Source: Somniosus microcephalus
Lineage: Eukaryota
Length of the DNA: 64,000 nt
Direction of reading: 5' to 3'
Assembly (NCBI GenBank): GCA_052327205.1
Contig: CM126228.1
Span: 45,446,001 to 45,510,000 of the forward strand
Shown here: positions 34,730-51,889 of the stretch, one piece after another
How the letters are laid out: each line of letters starts with the position of its first letter
Numbering within the stretch: the stretch's first letter is position 1
Notes under the pieces: generated by a model
Databases searched by the model: none
Told to the model about the DNA's origin: nothing
What the model saw: the letters and a program-made list of their open reading frames with translations, nothing else
Translations under genes and position numbers: made by a program

Positions 34730-37700
34730 AGAGTCATAGAGTCATAGAGTCATAGAGTTATACAGCACGGATAGAGGCCCTTCGGCCCATCGTGTCCACG
34801 CCGGCCATCACGCCCTGTCTAATCTAATCCCATATTCCAGCATTTGGTCCGTAGCCTTGTATGCTATGGCATCTCAAGTGCTCATCCAAATGCTTCTTGA
34901 ATGTTGTGAGGGTTCCAGCTTCCACAACCCTTTCGGGCAGTGAGTTCCAGACTCCAACCACCCTCTGGGTGAAAAAGTTCTTTCTCAAATCCCCTCTAAA
35001 CCTCCCGCCCTTTACCTTGAATCTATGCCCCCTAGTTATTGACCCTTCTACTAAGGGAAAAAGCTCCTTAGTATCAATCCTCTCTATGCCCCTCATAATT
35101 TTGTACACCTCAATCATGTCCCCCCTCAGCCTCCTCTGCTCCAAGGAAAACAAACCCAATCTGCCCAGTCTCTCTTCATAGCTGAAGCGTTCCAGCCCTG
35201 GTAGCATCCTGGTGAATCTCCTCTGCACCCTCTCCAAAGCTATCACATCCTTCCTGTAGTGTGGCGACCAGAACTGCACACAGTATTCCAGCTGTGGCCT
35301 AACCAGTGTTTTATACAGCTCCATCATAACCTCCTTGCTCTTATATTCTATGCCTCGGCTAATGAAGGCAAGTATCCCATATGCCTTTTTTACCACCTTA
35401 TCCACCTGTTCCGCCGCCTTCAGGGATCTGTGTACTTGCACACCCAGATCCCTCTGACCCTCCGTCTTGCCTAGGGTCTTACCATTCATTGTGTATTCCC
35501 TTGCCTTGTTAGTCCCCCCAAAGTGCATCACCTCGCACTTTTCCGGGTTAAATTCCATTTGCCACTGTTCCGCCCATCTGACCAACCCATCGATATCATC
35601 CTGCAGACTGAGACTACCCTCCTCGCTATTTACCACCCTACCAATTTTTGTATCATCCGCGAACTTACTGATCATACCTTTTACATTCATATCCAAGTCA
35701 TTAATATAGACCACAAACAGCAAGGGACCCAGCACCGATCCCTGTGGTACCCCACTGGCCACAGGCTTCCAGTCACAAAAACAACCTTCGACCATCACCC
35801 TCTGCCTTCTGCCACTAAGCCAGTTTTTTATCCAACGTGCCAAGGCACCCTGGATTCCATGGGCTCTTACCTTCTTGACCAGTCTCCTGTGCAGGACTTT
35901 ATCGAAGGCCTTACTGAAATCCATATATACCACATCCACTGCATTGCCCTCATCCACACACCTAGTCACCCCCTCAAAAAATTCAATCAAATTAGTCAGA
36001 CATGATCTTCCCTTGACAAAGCCATGTTGACTATCCCTGATTAATCCTTGCCTCTCCAAGTGGAGACTGATTTTGTCCCTTAGAATTTTTTCCAATAATT
36101 TTCCCACCACTGATGTTAGGCTCACTGGCCTGTAGTTCCCCGGTTTTTCCCTACTCCCCTTCTTGAATAATGGAACTACATTAGCGGTTCTCCAGTCCTC
36201 TGGCACATCCCCTGTGGCCAGAGAGGTTCTGAATATGTGTGTTAGAGCCCCCGCAATCTCTTCCTTTGCCTCACACAGCAGCCTGGGATACATTTCGTCC
36301 GGGCCTGGGGATTTATCCATTTTTAGGCCTGCTAAAACCGCCAATACCTCCTCCCTCTCAATGTTAATGTGTTCGAGCATTTCACAGTCCCCCCGCCCTA
36401 TTTCTATGTCTACATCGTCCCTCTCCATAGTGAAAACAGATGCAAAAAATTCATTTAGAACCCCTCCTACATCTTCCGGCTCCACACACAGATTGCCACT
36501 TTTGTCCCTAATGGGCCCTATTTTTTCCCTAGTTATCCTCTTACCCTTAATATACTTATAAAACATCTTAGGATTTTCCTTTATTTTGCTCGCCAGTGTT
36601 ATTTCATGGCCCCTCCTTGATCTCCTAATTTCTTTTTTAAGTATCCCCCTGCACTTTTTGTACTCCTCTAGGGCTCCCTCCGTCTTTAGCCTTTTGTATC
36701 TGCCAAAAGCCCTCCTTTTTTTCCTAATCCATTCTCGTATATCCCCTGACATCCAAGGTTCCCTGTGGTTTTTGGAACCACCCTTGACCTTTACGGGAAC
36801 ATGTTGCCATTGTATGATCTCAATCTCCTTTCTGAAAGCCTCCCATTGCTCCGATGCGGATTTTCCTACAAGTAGCTGATCCCAGTCCATTTTGGCCAGA
36901 TCCTGCCTTATCCTATTAAAATCGGCCTGCCCCCAATTTAGAACCTTTATTTCCGGCCCATCCCTGTCCTTTTCCATGACCACCTTAAATCTCACCATAT
37001 TATGGTCACTGTCACCAAAGTGCTCACCTACTAGCACTTCTTCCACTTGGCCGGCCACATTCCCTAGAATTAGATCCAGTACCGCCCCCTCTCTTGTAGG
37101 ACCTTCTACATGCTGGCTCAAAAAGCTCTCCTGGATGCACTTTAAGAATTCTACACCCTCTGTGCCTTTCACACTCTGACTATCCCAGTTAATATTGGGG
37201 AAGTTGAAATCCCCCATTATTATTACCCTATTATTTGCACATTTCTCTGAGATTTGCCTACATATCTGTTCCTCTATCTCCCCCTGACTGTTTGGAGGCC
37301 TATAGTACACTCCCAGCAAAGTGCTTGCCCCCTTCTTGTTTTTAAGCTCCACCCATATGGCCTCATTAGAGGAACCTGCTAATATGTCATCCCTCCTTAC
37401 TGCAGTAATTGACTCGTAAATTAATATTGCTACACCCCCTCCTCTTTTACCCCCCCCTCTGTCTCGCCTGAAGATTCTGTACCCCGGAATATTGAGCTGC
37501 CAGTCTTACCCCTCCCTCAACCATGTCTCCGTGATAGCAACAATATCATACTCCCATGTGTTTATCAACACCTTCAGTTCATCCACCTTATTTGCAAGAC
37601 TCCTTGCATTAAAATAGATGCCATCCAGCCTTGCCCTTGTATATTTGCCCTGTCTACCAAGCTGACTTGTTTTTTTCTCGATAATTGGCAGCACATCACC

Positions 37701-41910: not shown

Positions 41911-43400
41911 CAGCACAGTGATGGAGCAGGCGGGAACAGTAACTTCAGTGCACCCCTTGCTGGCACACCGCAATGCTAACGCATGGGGTTAGTGCCTCGG
42001 AGCGGCAGAGAGGGTAATGCTTTTGCAATCACCTCGAACTGCCTCACCATGACTTCCGCAACCAGAATGCGGAGAAGAGGGGTGGGCGTTGGGTGCTGGG
42101 CTGCTCTATTACACATGACTGCAAGTTCATGGCCACACCTAGGGACCCTTTTCCCTTAATGTTGTCCTGTAACTGCTGAATTCCCCTGCTTGTCCGCCGT
42201 GGCAAAGCTTGCTAATGGATCGGGACGTCTTTTGAAGTTTTCCATGGCTTTCAGAATTTTCGGCCCCCTATTGTGACACCGCCCTTTAGTTGGCTATTCC
42301 TTTAAGTTTGACAAACATGCAATTTCCCTTCCCACCACTAATGCTGCCCCTGGACCTGTCTGAGTCTGTACCTGGTGCTGTAAGTTATTATGTTAACGAG
42401 CTTGTACCAGACAATTGAGTACTGTTAGTGTTGAGTCTGTATGTTCCAGTTATGTTTAGGATTAATCACTGGACACAGACAACAAGAATAACTTTTAACA
42501 GGTCTTTACTATTCGAAGGTCAGGGCTGAACTGCCCAGCAAATCCTTGCACAACACTTATATACCGGTGTGGTCACCACCGGTATTACAGTATTACAGTA
42601 TACAGCAGCCAAGAGAAAGTAGTACACCTCTTAAGGTAGTTCTCTTTAAGGTGGAACAGGTTACATACACCACAATCCTCCCTTTTTAGCTTAACAGTTA
42701 TATCCCCATTTAACATAACATAATAACATATATATATACAACTTCATGCAAAACAGTTCAAAGATTCAGTCTCTGAGGAGGCCTCCTGATTCGAGTTGGA
42801 TAATGCCTTTCAGGGGTCTCTGATTCTCGTTGCTGGGGTGACTCATCTAGTTGGTCTCTTATGGATGGGACATCATCATCAGGTACATTCACTTCTGAGG
42901 TAGATGCTTCAGGTTCACTAACTTCTTTCACGGTTGTCTCTGCCGTAACCATGGGTTCGACCCTTGCTCTCGATTCTACCAGTTGGTCAGCATGACGCCG
43001 TATTACATTTTCACCAATATCTACCGTGTACATCAGGGGTCCTTGTCTGGCCCAAATTGTTCCAGATTGCCATTTCTCGTTTTTATAGTCCCGGGCTAAC
43101 ACTGGTTGTCCTATTTCGAAACTCCGAGTGGTCTTGTTATTTATATGCTGGAAGTGTTTGTTTTCAACTTCCCTCTGCACATTTGGTTTTAACAAGTCCA
43201 ACCTGGACCGCAACCTGCTGTTGTAGAACATCATGGCAGGACTTTGGTTTGTCACTGCATGAGTGGCGTTTCGATATGCCAGTAGGAATTTGTCCACCTT
43301 GTGTTGTAGTGGAATCTGATCTTCGCTCATGGCCTTTATTGCTTTTTTAAACGTTTATACAAATCTCTCGGCCAACCCGTTTGTAGCCGGATGATATGGG

Positions 43401-46400
43401 TGAAATAAAGAATAGATTTGCCTTTCTAATCTAGGCTTTATTAACTTAAAAATCCGGTAGCACATCTTCAACACCCAGTCCCAACTAAAGGCTGGAAAGA
43501 ACTGAATTTAAGATGGCCACCACAAATCACATGACATCAACTACCAATGAGATTACAGCATATAGCCCAAGGCAGGAAACAAACAACCAATCACAATACT
43601 TCTTACTAAACATAAAGAATAATCACCACATTCACCCCTCCTTTTAAAATATACTCCAACCTAAATAACCTTTACAATTTATAATTAATTATTTACAACT
43701 AAAACTATGCACAGACAAAATAAAACTATTCAACATGACACAATACTAAGTGAGCAACAACAAATAGTAACATTGCACATAAGTATTAAGCATCTCTCAA
43801 CTAAAACAATATAATATAATATATTTCAACAATTTTAAAACATTACTATCAATTTAAAAGTCCATTTTCAATCGGTCGACTGGATATCTTGTTCATGTTG
43901 ACCTTCTTAACCTTGGTGAAATTCCTTGCCCTCCCACACCAGGAGACACAGAAGTATCTTCTGCAGGAAGGCTATCCATATCCCGATTTTCAACGGTTTC
44001 CGGATTAGAAATCCCATCAGGAGGTAAACTGGGATGGTCATGAACATCCATCGAGGGCTGACTAATAGAAGTATAATTATCTGCAGTCGGATTGGAAATA
44101 TTCGTAGTATCTGTAACAGCATCCACATTATCTGAATCATGACTATTGTTAATATCCTCAGAAGAGGGCTGGCCACCACAAGGAGCCAAGTCTTTAATTG
44201 AAACGGTACTTTCTTTCCCATCTTGGAATCGAATATGAGCATATTGGGAATTTGCTTCCAATAGCTCCACCTCCTCCACTAAAGGATCATATTTTGACAA
44301 TCTAACATGGCGTCGAAGCAGCACAGGTCCCTGCATAGTAAGCCATGAAGGTACCGAATATCCCGTAGTAGATCTCCGTGGATAGTTAAAGAGCCTTTCA
44401 TGGGGGGTCACATTAGTAGCCGTTGAAAGCAATGATCTAATGGAATGCAGGGCATCAGGCAGTACCATTTCCCACTGTGTATTCTTAAGGTTCCGGGATG
44501 TCAAAGCCAACATAACTGCCTTCCAGATCACCCCATTGTATCATTCGCACTGTCCATTACCCTGGGGATTATACGGGATAGTTCTGCTAGTAGAAATTCC
44601 CCGACTCTGAAGGTATTTCTTCAACTGGGAAGACATAAAAGAACTTCCCTGATCCGAATGGATATACGCAGGCATCCCAAAGATGACAAAAAGTTGAGTC
44701 AGACATTTGATAACTGTAGCAGCTGATACATCTGCGCAAGGAAAAGCAAAAGGGAACCTTGAAAACTCATCCACAACAGTAAATATATATCGGTTTTGAG
44801 TAGTTGAAGGAAGAGGCCCCTTGAAATCGACGCTCAAACGTTCAAAAGGAGAAGTAGCCTTTATAAGATGAACTCGTTGAGGCTTAAAGAAATTCGGTTT
44901 ACACCGAGCACAGATAGAACATGATGAAGTCATCCGCTTGACGTCTTCAACTGAAAAGGGCAAATTCTTACTGCGTATGAAGCGTATCATCCTCATAACC
45001 CCAGGATGGCATAAGGCATTGTGAAGATTAATAAGCGTATCTCCGTGAATCACAGAACAATAAGCCCTCGACAGCGCATCAGCAGCAACATTATCCTTCC
45101 CCGGACGATAAACTATATCAAAATGGTAACATGCCAACTCAATCCTCCACCTCATTATTTTATCATAGAGTCATAGAGTTTTACAGCACAGAAAGAGGCC
45201 CTTCGGCCCATCGTGTCTGCGCCGCCCATCCATCCCTGTCCAGTCTAATCCCATTTTCCAGCATTTGGTCCATAGCCTTGTATGCAATGGCATTCCAAGT
45301 GCTCATCCAAATGCTTCTTAATCTTTCCAAAATGTTTGACATCAAACATAAAGGACACAGACTTTTGATCAGTTACCAACGTAAAATGTCGCCCCGATAA
45401 ATAATGTCTCCATTTACGCAGTGCTTCTACTATTGCATACGCCTCTTTCTCTATTGAAGAATGCCTTTTTTCACTATTGTTCAAGGTACGTGAGAAAAAG
45501 GCCACAGGTCTTCCATTTTGGTTCAGAGTAGCCCGAATTGCAAAATCAGAAGCGTCCGTCTCAATCACAAAAGGAACCTGCTCATCAATAGAATGCACAA
45601 CTGCTCCAAGGATATCCTTTTTAAAATTATCAAAACACGTCCTGGCCTCCCATGATAAAGGATATGTCGTAACCCGAATAAGAGGCTGGATCTTCTGTGA
45701 AAAATTTGCAATCCAATTAGAATAGTAAGAAAACAGTCCAACAACTCATTGCAAAGCCTTAGAATTAGTAGGACAAGGTAAATCAATCAATGGTCGCAGA
45801 CGTTCTGGGTCTGGTTTAATCTTGTTTCCCGAGATAATGTACCCCAGTAGATTTACCTCAGTGGTCGAAAAGGTACACTTCTCTTTATTGAAAGTTAAAC
45901 CAACTTTTTCCGCAGCTTGAAGGAATCTTTCTAAATTAGAATCATGCTCCACCCTTGATTTGTCACACACCGTGATGTCATCTAAATATGAAAAGGTGTC
46001 AGAGAGAGAGTTATCACTTATAAAAGCATCCATTGCCCGTTGAAAACAAGCAACACCATTAGTAACACCAAATGGTATTCGGCAAAACTGATACAGCTTT
46101 CCACCAGCCTCAAAGGCCGTATATGGTTGATCCTTCTTAACAATAGGAATCTGATGATAAGCACTCTTTAGGTCAATAGTGCTAAAAACCTTATACTGAG
46201 ATACTTTATTGATAAGCTCATCAATCTTAGGCAAAGGGTACGCATCTAATTGAGTATACCTATTAATAGTTTGGGAATAGTCTATCACCATTCGTTTCTT
46301 ATGTCTCTCGTTAGTCGTGACAACTACCTTTGCCCGCCAAGGCGAACAACTAGGTTCAATGATTCCTTCCAATAAGAGACGTTGAACTTCAGAATTAATA

Positions 46401-47266
46401 AATTCTCTATCCTGACTGCTATACCTTCTTGACTTGGTAGCAATTGGCTTACAATCCGGCATCAAATTGGAAAAAAGCGATAATGGGAGCATAAGAATCC
46501 GAACTTCTCTGAGCCACATCCAATGTAGAAGCTTGCTCAAAAGCACTCTTAAGATCCAAAGTCTTATTTTCTAACAACCGCTGATGAATTGATCTAGACA
46601 GTAATCCATTAATAAAAGCATCCCGTACCGATTCTTCCTTATATTCTTCAGCCGTCACGGCCTTATAATTACAGTTAACACTAAGGCACCGAAGTGCTTG
46701 TAAATAAGTATCCAAAGATTCTCCCACCTGCTGCCTATGGGCAGATAGAAGGTGACGTGCAAATACCTCATTCTTTGGTTTAACAAAAATCTTTTCCAAT
46801 GTAGAAATAGCCACTTCGTAAGTTTTACAGTCCAAAATATACTTATACACATCCGGAGCAATGTAGTTGATCAGCATATTCAGCTTATTTAGAGACTCTT
46901 GATGCAACACGCCCAAAAAGTTTTTAAATGTACAATACCAATGTTTCCATTTATCATCCACTCCTGCAGAATTAGGGTCAGCATTGAATCGTTCTGGTTG
47001 AAGATATCGCTCCATTCTGACATAAAGTTAATAAATTGAAATAAAGAATAGATTTGCCTTTCTAATCTAGGCTTTATTAACTTAAAAATCCGGTAGCACA
47101 TCTTCAACACCCAGTCCCAACTAAAGGCTGGAAAGAACTGAATTTAAGATGGCCACCACAAATCACATGACATCAACTACCAATGAGATTACAGCATATA
47201 TCCCAAGGCAGGAAACAAACAACCAATCACAATACTTCTTACTAAACATAAAGAATAATCACCACA
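43401..47266 (-). mobile_element. Second Ty3/Gypsy element nested in the outer integrase, internally deleted
   Basis: 230-bp LTRs 43401-43630 and 47037-47266 (1 mismatch); TSD ATGGG; PPT AAAAGGAGGGGTGAA; gag from 47015, RT (YLDD), RNase H (TDASD), integrase (SVDFKGP, HSDQG); no protease motif. Confidence 0.95.
45163..45320 (-). mobile_element. CR1 3' tail inserted in the inner Gypsy
   Basis: KKHLDEHLECHCIQGYGPNAGKWD* plus (ATGACTCT)n, lying between FGKIK and NDKIMRW. Confidence 0.9.
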
Positions 47267-49335
47267 ATGGGGCAGAGGTATAATGTTTCACCCCATTCTT
47301 CTTCATGAATCCCTGGAATTCTTCTGACATGAACTGCGGTCCGTTGTCTGAACATATTTGTTCTGGCAATCCATTTCTCGCAAATATCGTTCTTAACACC
47401 GCGATCGTCTTTTCCGAGGTAGTGGTAGTCATCTTAATCACTTCTGGCCATTTAGAATGTGCGTCCACCGCAATTAAAAACATGGAGTCCATGAAAGGAC
47501 CAGCAAAGTCAATATGTACACATTGCCATGGGGTTGAAGGCCATTCACATGGATGCAGCGGGGCAATCGGAGGTGCATTTTGCACTTTTTGACACCCTGA
47601 GCAGCTTTTCGTCAGCTCCTCTATCTGTTGGTCGATACCCGGCCACCACACATAAGCCCTAGCAAGGCTTTTCACCTTGACTCCCCCCAGATGACCTTCA
47701 TGCAGTTCCTTTAGAACTCTCTCTCTTAACTTAGGAGGAATAATCACCCTTGTTCCATACATCAATGTTCCTTGACAGACGGACAGCTGTTCTCGTCTTG
47801 CTGAGAATGCCGGTAACAGTGGATCACCATGTGCTGGCCATCCCTTCACTGTCACTTCGTAGTCCCTGGACAGTGTTGGGTCATTCCTGGTTTCTCTTTC
47901 AATACTTGCATTGGTGACTGGTAAACATTCGATGATGGTCGAGTGAAATAACGCAACAGGGTCAACCGTCGGTGCCTCGTCCTCTGTAGGTAGTGGCAGG
48001 CGCGACAGCCCATCAGCATTACCATGCTGCTTTGTACCTTTGAATTCTATCTGATATTGATGTGCCCCTAGGAAAAGGGACCATCTCTGGAGTCTCTGTG
48101 CTGTCATCACCGAAACACCCTTCTTAGGGTTAAAAATGGATACCAACGGCTGGTGGTCTGTCAGAAGCGTAAACTTTTGGCCCTGCAGGTAATGATTAAA
48201 CTTCTTTACTCCCCACACAAGGCTGAGAGCCCCCCTATCTATCTGAGCATAGTTGCGCTCAGCGGAGGTCAATGATCTGGATGCGAATGCAACTGGCCTC
48301 TCCTGGCCATTTGGCAACTTGTGTGAGAGTACTGCCCCAATACCATATGGAGAAGCATCACAAGCCAAACGAATAGGCAGCGTTGGGTTGAAGTGAGCCA
48401 ACACTTCCTCTGAGGTGATCAATGCCTTGCTTTTGCGAAAGGCCCTCTTACAGTCCTCGCTCCACTTCCATGGTACTCCCTTCTGCAAAAGAGCGTTCAG
48501 CGGGTGCAGCACCGTGGATAAATTTGGCAGAAACTTATGGTAATAGTTAATCAACCCTAGAAACGACCTCAATTGGGATACATTATCCGGAGCGGGAGCC
48601 TTCACAACAGCTTCAATCTTGTCAGGAGACTTATGAAGCCCCTCCTGGTCAATGACATGACCACAGTACGAGATCCGCTTCTGAAAGAATTCACATTTCT
48701 GGCGATTAACTCGAAGACCATATTCTTTCAATCTGGTGAGCACCAGTTCCAAGTTTGCAAGGTGTTCCTCGTCATCATCTCCTGTAATCAGAATATCATC
48801 CAGGTAACATTGTGTACCTGGAATTCCCTGTAATACCTGCTCCATGGCCCTCTGCCAAATTGCTGGAGCCGATGCCACTCCAAAAACCAGTCTATTATAC
48901 CGGTACAAGCCTCTATGCGTGTTGACCGTGAGATACTGGCGTGACTCTTCCTCAACTTCCATCTGTAAGTACGCCTGCGCCAGGTCTATCTTGGTGAAGT
49001 GTTTCCCGCCAGACAATGAAGCGAAGATATCCTCAATCCGTGGAAGTGGATACTGCACCGTGTGAAGCACCGGATTAACAGTGATCTTGAAATCACCACA
49101 GATGCGAACCTTCCCCGGTTCCCCCGGCTTGTTGCTCGATGAACGCTTCATGACTGGGACAATGGGCATGGCCCACTCACTCCAGTCTACCTTAGACAGT
49201 ACTCCTGAACGTTCTAGCCCTTCCAGCTCAGCTTCCACAGCAGGTCGTATTGCATAAGGTACCGGTCTGGCTTTGAAAAATTTTGGGTTTGCATGTTCTT
49301 CAATCTTGATGTTTGCCGTAATTCCTCTGTGTTCC
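47267..49335 (-). pseudogene. Outer Gypsy RT-RNase H-integrase; integrase resumes at 43400-42758
   Basis: RICGDFK, YLDDIL, CDASPYG, HHCC, HIDFAGP, SDNGPQF; SAP|YHPATNG is split by the inner element. Confidence 0.92.
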
Positions 49336-50580
49336 CAGTCCTTGTTGGAACACCTCTTTAGCATCGTCCAATATTCTAGACAATCGTTTAGGTTTGACAT
49401 CTTTTGTACCGGAATCTACCGTTAGTGCTTTTAAGGAATGCCAGTCCATATTTATTTTCCTAATCCACTCCCGTCCCAGTAGTGGTGGACCTCCCTCAGG
49501 TAGCACATATAAGTCCATTCCTCGGCTTTCTTTGCCCTTGTGGACCACCTTTACCTCTATCTTCCCGATGGGGTATACTCTTTGCCCCGTGTATGTTTTC
49601 AATACAATCTCCGTATCCCGTAGGGGAATATGTGGGAATAACCTTTTGTAATCTTTCTTATTCATGACCGTCAATGCCGATCCAGTGTCCAATTCCATCT
49701 TCACTTGGACTCCTGCTATCTGAAGTGTGACCCAAATTGTTTGGAGGTCTGCTTCCTTACCAACATTGTGTACTCTTAGACTACCCAGTTCATTACTGCT
49801 GGCGTCTGAATCTGACTTCTGTTCATTCGAACTGTTCTCTGTCACCTTGTGTACCTTGTTGTACTTTTCCTGCGGTGACTTTTTGTTGCTGGTCTTCTTT
49901 CCTGACCGGCATACTTTAGCTATGTGACCAAGCCTGCCACATTTTCTGCATTCCTGATTTTTGAACCAGCACTGGTTCTGATCATGTGTTGTCTTTCCAC
50001 AATGATAACATTTTACTGTACTCAAGACCATTTGATTGGTACAGAGTTCCGGTGACCGTAGCTGCATTTCCGCAGTGCCTCTTGCTGTGGCTTCTTGCGA
50101 TGCTGCAATAGTGACAGCTTTATCAAGCGTAAGATCATTCTCTTCAAGCAGTCGCTTTTGTGTTCCTTCTTTTAACAATCCACACACAAATTTATCTCTC
50201 AGCGCATCTGCTAGCCCTGTCCCAAACTGACAGTACTTCGATAGCTTACGTAGTTCAATTAAAAATTCAGCGTTGCTTTCGTCTTTCAACTGCGTTCTTC
50301 TGTAAAATTTAAATCGTTCCGCTATCATCAGCGGCGTGGGGTTTAAATGATTTTTCAGGACAGTAACAATATTCGCGAAGGTCTGATCCGCCGGTTTATT
50401 TGGTGATAGAAGGTGCTTCAATAGCCCGTATGTCTTCGCCCCCATTGAGCTTAATAAGGTTAATGCTTTCTCATCATCTGGTACCTTATTTGCTTCACAA
50501 TAAACTTCCAGGCGTTCTACATACGTGGTCCAATCTTCGACATCACTATCAAAGGTATTAATGCTCCCATGTTTAGGCAT
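49300..50580 (-). pseudogene. Outer Gypsy gag-protease (two CCHC knuckles, LDTGS protease motif)
   Basis: CYHCGKTTHDQNQC, CRKCGRLGHIAKVC, MELDTGSA; frameshift near 49330 separates it from RT. Confidence 0.9.
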
Positions 50581-51889
50581 CCTTGCAAGTTTTTAAAATT
50601 TTTTAAGTTTTTTAAAATGGCGGCTTCCCGCGCTTGTCTTCTTCCCCCGCCTACTAAAATGGCGGCTTCCTGCGTTTGGCGGTCTTTCCCGCGCTCGTCT
50701 TCTTCCCCGCCGACTACAATGGCGGATTCCCGCGTTTGCCTTCTTCCCCCGCTGGCTGCAATGGCGATTGCCTTGCTGCTGCCGTTCTCGCCTCCCCAGT
50801 GGTCCTGACTCCCCGACGCTGCTTTGCCTTGCAGCCCCGCTTGCAGCCCGGTCCTTTACACCAGCTGCGTTTGAATTCTCCGCGGCTCTCGTGCCTTAAG
50901 CTTCTCAACTCCCCGACGCTGCTTTGCCTCGCAGCCCCGCTCGCAGCCCGGTCCTGTACACCGGCTGCATTTGAGTTCTCCGTGGCTCTCGAGCCTTAAG
51001 CTGCCCCAGTCGCTGCGCCTCTCGGCCTCGATTGCAGCCCGGCCCTTTCTACCGGCCGTGGTCGAGCTCTCCGCCCTTATTCCTCCGTTTTCCCTCCCCT
51101 ACTCCACAGTCAACGCGGCCGACTTTCTGCTCGTGTCGCTGATCGGCTTACCCACCACCGTGGTAGAAGGGATGATCACTGCCTGTCGCTGATGGAGGGC
51201 TTCGTGGTCAGAATTCTTTTTCTTTTTAACCCGGGTTCTCGATGCCTCCCGTGCGATGGTGCTCAGCAGGATGATGAGGGCGGATGCCTCTTCTCGACGC
51301 CCGTTTTGAGGACGAAGCTGCCTTGGATGTAAATTTGCCGCAGGGTAAGATCGGACTCGTCGCCACTGTTGAGCCTGTATGTTCCAGTTATGTTTAGGAT
51401 TAATCACTGGACACAGACAACAAGAATAACTTTTAACAGGTCTTTACTATTCGAAGGTCAGGGCTGAACTGCCCAGCAAATCCTTGCACAACACTTATAT
51501 ACCGGTGTGGTCACCACCGGTATTACAGTATTACAGTATACAGCAGCCAAGAGAAAGTAGTACATCTCTTAAGGTAGTTCTCTTTAAGGTGGAACAGGTT
51601 ACATACACCACAGTTAGCACCTGACCTTTCAGCTGGACTTTGCAACAGATTTTATCTATCGAAAACCTACTTGCACCTGTAGGTAAAAATCAGCCCCATT
51701 CTCTCCCTCTCCAATCCTCCCAGTTCCACCTGTCACTCCCTTCCGCATTAATGCTGGCACTCTCTTCCCAACCTAACCAGAGCAATGGCGAATATCCACA
51801 GACAGTTCACTTGCACCTGGGGAAGGCAACCCAAACGTCAAACACCAAACAGTGTGCTGTACAAGCTGTCACTATGTTCACCCAACCAG

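Follow-up and report, generated by a model that had tools for sequence, protein, structure and literature searches.

Tf1 of S. pombe primes reverse transcription with its own RNA, using an 11-nt primer (PMC7175516). Its RNA is described as a ‘pretzel’ of three duplexes, in which sequence lying beside the primer-binding site (PBS) pairs with the LTR downstream of the primer (PMC10085805). Taken together, the passages on priming in a set of earlier papers assign this mechanism to chromoviruses of the Tf1/sushi and Tcn1 groups, with a proposal that TAR, a Copia lineage of plants, shares it (PMC6934838, PMC6317226, PMC6238403, PMC3601003, PMC4600332, PMC8556966, PMC5341516, PMC7175516, PMC10085805, PMC5006619, PMC5445492). 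In Tf1 and Tf2, Tj1, Tosmo and the Tf1/sushi group, the PBS lies right past the 5′ LTR and complements the element’s own LTR (PMC7175516, PMC10085805, PMC4600332, PMC5341516). For the Tcn1-clade chromoviruses and the TAR (Houba/Osr-1) elements of plants, self-priming is predicted from such complementarity, and with TAR the signature has already been proposed outside the chromoviruses (PMC6317226). The fungal GalEa elements, with their ‘conserved hairpin site’ (PMC5445492), and Dictyostelium Skipper (PMC5006619) also lack a tRNA PBS, and both papers state that a complementary LTR sequence was not found. Non-chromovirus Gypsy elements of marine and aquatic invertebrates are represented by the Cigr-1 and MolGy clades (PMC6238403, PMC8556966). 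The term PBS is absent from the main texts of both papers, and the supplementary tables of PMC6238403 hold, in the rows examined, only families and accession numbers.

Here we describe a self-priming signature in a Gypsy element from a 64,000-nt stretch of Somniosus microcephalus DNA (hereafter the window; GenBank assembly GCA_052327205.1, contig CM126228.1, positions 45,446,001 to 45,510,000) and in the lineage to which this element belongs. As in the Tf1/sushi group, the PBS directly follows the 5′ LTR and complements it over a duplex of ∼11 nt, there is no tRNA site, and the domain order is that of Ty3/Gypsy. Unlike that group as described, the lineage has neither a chromodomain nor an SH3_Tf2-1 domain and forms a separate RT-RNase H (RT-RH) branch; most of its families have a primer that overlaps the poly(A) hexamer, a local hairpin stands at the predicted cut where Tf1 has the three-duplex pretzel, and its priming is predicted from sequence. 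It also differs from Tcn1 and TAR in superfamily or branch and in hosts, being a chromodomain-less Gypsy lineage of aquatic animals, and it is defined by the very LTR complement that was not found in GalEa and Skipper. We estimate a probability of about 0.85 that the element and its related families use their own RNA to prime synthesis of the minus DNA strand, in the manner of Tf1. The mechanism itself would be a known one. Within the literature searched, which left subscription papers (e.g. Butler 2001), Repbase reports and GyDB pages outside its scope, we encountered no report of a self-priming animal Gypsy clade outside the chromoviruses.

Table 1. Nested Gypsy elements of the window and the parts of the inner element, with positions counted from the first nucleotide of the window
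Feature	Positions	Strand	Basis
Outer Gypsy element, 246-nt LTRs, TGG-type PBS	42429..51612	-	Repeats, ORFs, Pfam
Inner Ty3/Gypsy element; this copy is defective, its family young and abundant	43401..47266	-	LTR pair, CCCAT target duplication; Pfam matches to RT, RNase H and integrase
5′ LTR, 230 nt, TG..CA	47037..47266	-	Repeat and sequence analysis
Predicted self-primer AAGTTAATAAA, containing AATAAA	47073..47083	-	Exact complement of PBS; register constant across families
GCCT..AGGC hairpin, starting at the first base past the primer	47056..47072	-	Predicted fold; 4-bp partner across families
One-base spacer (A) between LTR end and PBS	47036..47036	-	Sequence; spacing repeated wherever both LTRs define the end
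Primer-binding site TTTATTAACTT, complement of own LTR, no TGG	47025..47035	-	Window copy, fetched copies, family comparison
gag, N-terminal part, ATG at 47015, 21 nt past the LTR	46487..47015	-	ORFs, copy comparison
Reverse transcriptase and RNase H, interrupted by one stop (45746-45748)	45315..46456	-	ORFs, Pfam
148-nt insertion, similar to the LINE ORF of 34824-37505 at its 3′ end	45167..45314	-	Missing from other copies
Integrase, one stop at 44541-44543, no chromodomain	43893..45166	-	ORFs, Pfam
Polypurine tract AAAAGGAGGGG and short spacer ahead of the 3′ LTR	43631..43645	-	Sequence
3′ LTR, one difference from the 5′ LTR	43401..43630	-	Sequence

The inner element is inserted into the integrase of the outer one, and both lie on the minus strand (Table 1). 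Its TG..CA LTRs, 5-bp target duplication (CCCAT), polypurine tract and gag-PR-RT-RH-IN order identify it as Ty3/Gypsy; the protease is present in homologous polyproteins and deleted from the window copy. Comparison with eight fetched copies indicates that ∼690 nt, covering the gag C-terminus and the protease, are missing at 46487/46486. The gap is visible against seven of the eight, the last being itself deleted further up, and loose ends of RNA-seq reads coincide with it. Because it has no protease and carries stops, the window copy records the mechanism of its family and cannot be autonomous. The LINE-like 148-nt piece between RNase H and integrase occurs only in the window copy among the copies compared. 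The outer element has an ordinary TGG-type PBS one base past its LTR and provides an in-window contrast. Its two LTRs differ at two positions, it is flanked by a CTAAC target duplication, and its 5′ leader contains two tandem repeats with a ∼100-nt period (50613-51007). The family of the outer element is very abundant in the genome, with many long open frames.

The LTR/PBS complementarity of the inner element is exact and is not chance. The first-pass annotation, made from the window’s letters, had reported that TTTATTAACTT (47035-47025) exactly complements AAGTTAATAAA (47083-47073), and every coordinate proved right. As it had also stated, pairing stops on both sides, the gag start codon follows closely, and no TGG adjoins the LTR; the mismatches that end the pairing are T/T (47084/47024) and G/A (47072/47036). 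When the LTR was shuffled 20,000 times by dinucleotides, an 11-nt complement somewhere within the first 25 nt arose with p=0.00125, and one starting within 4 nt with p=0.0007; a match of this kind was absent from all 3,367 windows taken from the element's interior. When the RNA is folded from 47083, the predicted duplex has pair probabilities of 0.85–0.94, apart from an end pair at 0.55, and an energy of −12.8 kcal/mol. A DNA search of the 6.4-Gb genome returned 328 candidate copies, of which 40 were scored and 30 loci fetched, the window copy included. All 30 have the same primer, the same PBS and no TGG. A normal TGG site deleted in the window copy alone is rejected on these counts: since all 30 loci are alike, the absence of a tRNA-type PBS belongs to the family.

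The same arrangement recurs in related families. The gag protein has 287 homologous matches, and among the 120 listed the named hosts are hagfish, sea anemones, corals, sea cucumber and decapods, many of these homologues being single polyproteins of ∼1,200 aa. A gag alignment search gave 200 relatives in metagenome contigs, of which the best 80 were used; viral contigs scanned with gag and RT gave no matches. At loci where both LTRs fix the LTR end, the sequence past it begins CA|A-TTT and complements the element’s own LTR, starting one base past the CA. For counting, we anchored each sequence on CA[AG]T[TC]T no more than 75 nt from the gag start, a motif picked after inspection of the LTR-defined ends. 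The anchor was present in 67 of 81 sequences, window included; 14 were excluded (13 without anchor, one truncated), and one of these (L079) shows 13-nt pairing. Clustering at 80% gag identity sorted the 67 anchored sequences into 25 families, each represented by its first usable member.

In 20 of the 25 representatives the PBS pairs with its own LTR over 11–18 perfect pairs from LTR+2, whereas pairing with another family’s LTR reaches 11 nt in only 1 of 600 combinations. The five short representatives have 9, 9, 0, 0 and 0 nt; two of the zero-pair families have sister copies at 11 and 16 nt, and the third (L105/L106) has none. Covariation is visible in single cases as well: L033 and L045 differ by a single compensated pair, and in L062 and L076 AAA/TTT is replaced by AGA/TCT. 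Among 11 loci from bacterial metagenome-assembled genome (MAG) contigs, four of them without 5′ end or gag, six pair over 10–15 nt (L281, L282, L284-L286, L288). L282 keeps 15 pairs at only 48% RT-RH identity, and L283 seems, by eye, to pair with a T spacer. The presence of this animal retrotransposon lineage in bacterial MAG contigs (L281-L291) is most likely due to host contamination. The register one base past the CA of the LTR, the covariation and the missing TGG recur across the lineage.

The covariation is visible within the S. microcephalus genome as well. At primer position −10, 2,429 copies of the family combine LTR A with PBS T, and 874 have LTR G with any PBS base, C standing opposite in 30 of 30 sampled. 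Mixed copies number 28, or less than 1% (A/C 15, G/T 13), so that G-U wobble and A-C mismatch are similarly rare at this position; reversed-pattern controls for these counts were zero. This A-U/G-C switch may represent one evolutionary event. Together with the comparison among families, these 2×2 counts bear out the conservation and covariation that the self-priming reading of the first-pass annotation called for. From the few mixed copies and the rare wobble we infer that renewal of the PBS from the primer at every cycle fits better than a freely evolving hairpin. With more than 3,300 LTR-PBS junctions of one family, the genome amounts to a natural compensatory-mutation experiment. A second local family of the same lineage (L191-L210; gag identity 46%, 150 matches scored) has 13 pairs of a different sequence in 17 of 20 copies, the remaining three having 10, 7 and 0. 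Several copies of this second family have 1,242-aa open frames.

Examination of the primers highlights a conserved start-like motif and a hairpin. The set examined comprises 33 distinct primers from the best-pairing member of each family and is thus biased towards pairing. A, G and T occupy positions −11, −10 and −9 in 23, 26 and 23 of the 33, respectively; AG stands at −11 in 19 and in at most four at any position from −20 to −12. This AGT resembles the initiator motif TCAKTY named in PMC3601003 and may be an initiator-like site; transcription from its A would yield a primer of 11 nt, the length used by Tf1 (PMC7175516). A TATA box was sought ∼30 nt upstream of 47083 in the window, and none was seen. 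Pairing extends further than the start suggested by the AGT: 30 of 33 primers pair at −12 and −13, 21 at −14, 19 at −15, 13 at −16 and 4–11 beyond. The first-pass description of an 11-nt primer is therefore exact for the window copy and too strict for the lineage, where perfect pairing mostly spans 13–16 nt. Since pairing reaches −13 in nearly all primers, past the proposed start, transcription would begin at heterogeneous positions or further upstream; the extra pairs would be accounted for if starts are scattered and the longer primers have left footprints that were inherited. Two RNA-seq runs under a related species label gave 1,633 and 4,059 reads on a 1-kb stretch, many running into unrelated flanks. 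These reads form no start pile at 47083, in a library type that does not map caps, and the loose ends listed include no poly(A) ends, with 83 and 18 further ends beyond those listed.

Directly past the primer, 21 of 24 families have RCC, and 18 of these 21 have a 4-bp hairpin partner N′GGY downstream, compared with 2.3 expected. The fourth pair of the stem is T-A in 14, A-T in three and G-C in one, mismatched in two and absent in one. Family-by-family tests of this U5 stem are mostly non-significant (p 0.04–0.98), significance coming from the pooled motif test alone. The pattern is that of a covarying RCCN..N′GGY hairpin at the predicted cut, where it would stand instead of the Tf1 pretzel. 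The three-duplex pretzel was itself sought in the 24 families and not found: the leader-U5 helix measured 4.5 nt against 4.2 in shuffled sequence, and the LTR-end helix 3.5 against 3.75. In four local chromovirus copies used as a control, the leader duplex reached 7.5 nt against 5.2 shuffled and the LTR end 4.5 against 4.5, so that as a control these copies validate the search for one duplex, that of the leader. The conserved AGT as an initiator-like site and the covarying hairpin appear to be new here.

The primer ends in AATAAA or ATTAAA in 16 of 24 families. The first-pass annotation had proposed that the fold would mask the 5′ poly(A) signal, and the predicted duplex does cover the AATAAA. 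As a purpose, masking is weak: pairing is kept in eight of 24 families without either hexamer at the primer end, two of them with TGAAGA or GATAGA, so masking may be a side effect but cannot be the reason for the pairing. We regard it as at most secondary.

Because the PBS pairs perfectly with its own LTR and covaries with it across a chromodomain-less lineage, self-priming is likely, and a series of steps can be proposed. The RNA start near 47083 inferred in the first-pass annotation is plausible. Transcription would start at the A of the initiator-like AGT (47083 here) or a few bases before it, and the first 11–13 nt of the RNA would fold onto the PBS. The RNA would then be cut after ...AAA (47073), at the foot of the RCC..GGY hairpin, probably by the element’s RNase H if the analogy with Tf1 holds. 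The RT would extend the new 3′ end through U5, and the strand jump would use a short R of roughly 15–25 nt. Probably, every cycle writes the primer sequence back into the PBS, and this would account for the strict Watson-Crick covariation. In Tf1, the primer is reported to stay on the cDNA.

Several other explanations of the pairing were weighed. A variant that still belongs to the self-priming reading places the transcription start well upstream in the LTR, so that cutting after ...AAA would release a long 5′ piece, the final 11–16 nt of which prime. The missing TATA at −30, the pairing past −11 and a duplex that folds equally well or better with RNA starts at 47100 or 47140 speak for it. However, the conserved AGT lies exactly 11 nt from the end of the primer, in both local subfamilies the pairing stops at the first A past a T run, and the duplex probability is halved when the RNA is folded from 47200; we consider such an internal primer unlikely. 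It is considerably less probable that the pairing is a regulatory hairpin which only hides the 5′ poly(A) signal while priming takes another route. The frequent hexamer at the primer end and its coverage by the fold are what this explanation would predict, but the pairing survives loss of the canonical hexamer, in two families by TGAAGA/TCTTCA and GATAGA/TCTATC exchange; its partner occupies the PBS position in a fixed register, and no other primer site was seen. Nor would a mere RNA hairpin require G-U to be as rare as A-C (13 and 15 copies).

A half or fragment of a host tRNA might instead act as the primer, the LTR match being a by-product. The half-tRNA primers described for Copia lineages in PMC6317226 would be a precedent, and the tRNA loci obtained from the host form a narrow set (29 tRNA-Cys and one tRNA-Lys). 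Against this, the PBS varies by family and tracks each family’s own LTR, also within one genome, and a TGG lies within 20 nt of the LTR in just three of 24 families, always in the ATGG start context at +16/17; we regard a tRNA fragment as very improbable. A chance match in AT-rich sequence draws on the composition of the duplex, in which one of 11 pairs is G-C. The shuffle p values, the 20 of 25 pairing families and the within-genome counts all oppose it, the cross-family control (1/600) refutes it, and its remaining probability is negligible. Self-priming from the element’s own RNA thus remains our preferred reading.

The relationship of the lineage to the chromoviruses bears on the origin of this mechanism. 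The first-pass annotation had seen no chromodomain, and a Pfam search finds the C-terminus of the window integrase clean. Chromo or SH3_Tf2-1 occurs in none of 16 full polyproteins of the lineage, and no chromodomain is found among the precomputed domains of 120 listed homologues (of 287). To place the RT we reduced 395 RT-RH stretches to 106 representatives and then to 57 tree rows, consisting of 12 chosen lineage rows, every other representative with 340 aa or more, and four added local rows. In the resulting tree, built under LG+G4 with no mixture model and with Tf1, Ty3, fungal elements, Cigr-1 and MolGy absent, the lineage (100/100) and the chromoviruses of animals, algae and plants (100/99) lie on separate branches. 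The nearest outside row to the lineage is an RT of the microsporidian Pancytospora philotis (P0189; 82/96), an element whose mode of priming would matter for the question of origin. Grouping with the sushi-like elements of this genome is rejected by an AU test (p=7.9e-6), as is, by the same test, nesting within them. A sister position of the lineage to all chromoviruses gives p=0.22, or p=0.47 with the microsporidian row; these tests were chosen after the tree had been inspected. Chromodomain, branch and AU test agree with the first-pass view that this is not a sushi-type chromovirus. By three features, the missing chromodomain, the separate RT-RH branch and the missing pretzel, the lineage lies outside Tf1/sushi, and that it acts like Tf1 is our inference. 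It may well belong to Cigr-1 or a MolGy clade, both of which were compared by description; cluster look-ups returned no name for the clade. A single ORF of ∼1,200 aa and short LTRs are traits that would fit Cigr-1.

The genome also holds many chromodomain-bearing Gypsy elements. In 12 fetched regions, four contain a perfect 11-nt self-PBS (L144, L148, L150, L152) and three one of 8–9 nt, and five have no usable LTR pair; two unrelated self-priming signatures therefore coexist in this genome. The local chromoviruses share the one-base spacer, but their primer lies ∼150–160 nt from the LTR end, whereas in the families of the lineage it ends 23–75 nt from it. The window RT is 30–33% identical to the local chromoviruses and 29–33% to the outer family. 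Scores against the Ty3 RT fall from 267 bits (356 aa) for a local chromovirus to 204 (403 aa) for a lineage member and 184 (329 aa) for the outer element.

We lean towards an origin of self-priming independent of the chromoviruses. Inheritance from an ancestor common to both, an alternative that concerns origin only, has a lesser though substantial chance. It is consistent with the unrejected sister position (p=0.22, and p=0.47 with the microsporidian RT), with the one-base spacer and ∼11-nt duplex of the local chromoviruses, and with the ancestral hairpin priming speculated upon in PMC3601003. On the other hand, the window RT is no closer to the local chromoviruses than to the tRNA-primed outer family, the lineage scores below a chromovirus against the Ty3 RT, neither characteristic domain occurs in its 16 full polyproteins, and its RNA architecture differs. 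Plant chromoviruses besides Tcn1 are moreover given as tRNA-primed in PMC6317226, so that common ancestry would need extra reversals. The independent self-priming lineage suggested by the first-pass annotation is thus upheld as a branch apart from the chromoviruses, while the sister position, which is not rejected, makes its independent origin tentative. We conjecture, at somewhat less than even odds, that self-priming arose separately from Tf1/sushi in a compact chromodomain-less Gypsy lineage whose hosts range from cnidarians to vertebrates, that an 11-nt cassette there serves as AGT initiator, primer and poly(A) signal, and that a hairpin, in place of the pretzel, marks the cut. If this is true, such elements would be free of host tRNAs and beyond tRNA-fragment silencing at the PBS.

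In aquatic animals, dozens of families related to this element carry the signature. That a second animal lineage, itself widespread, combines it with another RNA architecture would mean either that loss of the tRNA primer was repeated in Gypsy or that self-priming is older than the chromoviruses; both options bear on whether hairpin or tRNA priming came first, a question raised in PMC3601003. Self-priming would also explain why such elements would be annotated without a PBS, and it allows them to be searched for by sequence, as LTR..CA followed by a single base and by the complement of a stretch of the LTR that ends before RCC. To the base, the model predicts where transcription starts and where the RNA is cut, together with a very short R.

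Some loci depart from the simple arrangement of a single element. L011 and L027 have a polypurine-tract-like sequence and no target site ahead of the 5′ LTR, which suggests tandem elements sharing an LTR. In L228, L229 and L216 the sequence past the PBS leaves gag within a few bases, and these are possibly non-autonomous derivatives with a common LTR and PBS. Elsewhere in this genome, tRNA-Cys genes form a tandem array with ∼1.6-kb spacing at C24:42.9-43.1 Mb (L252-L280).
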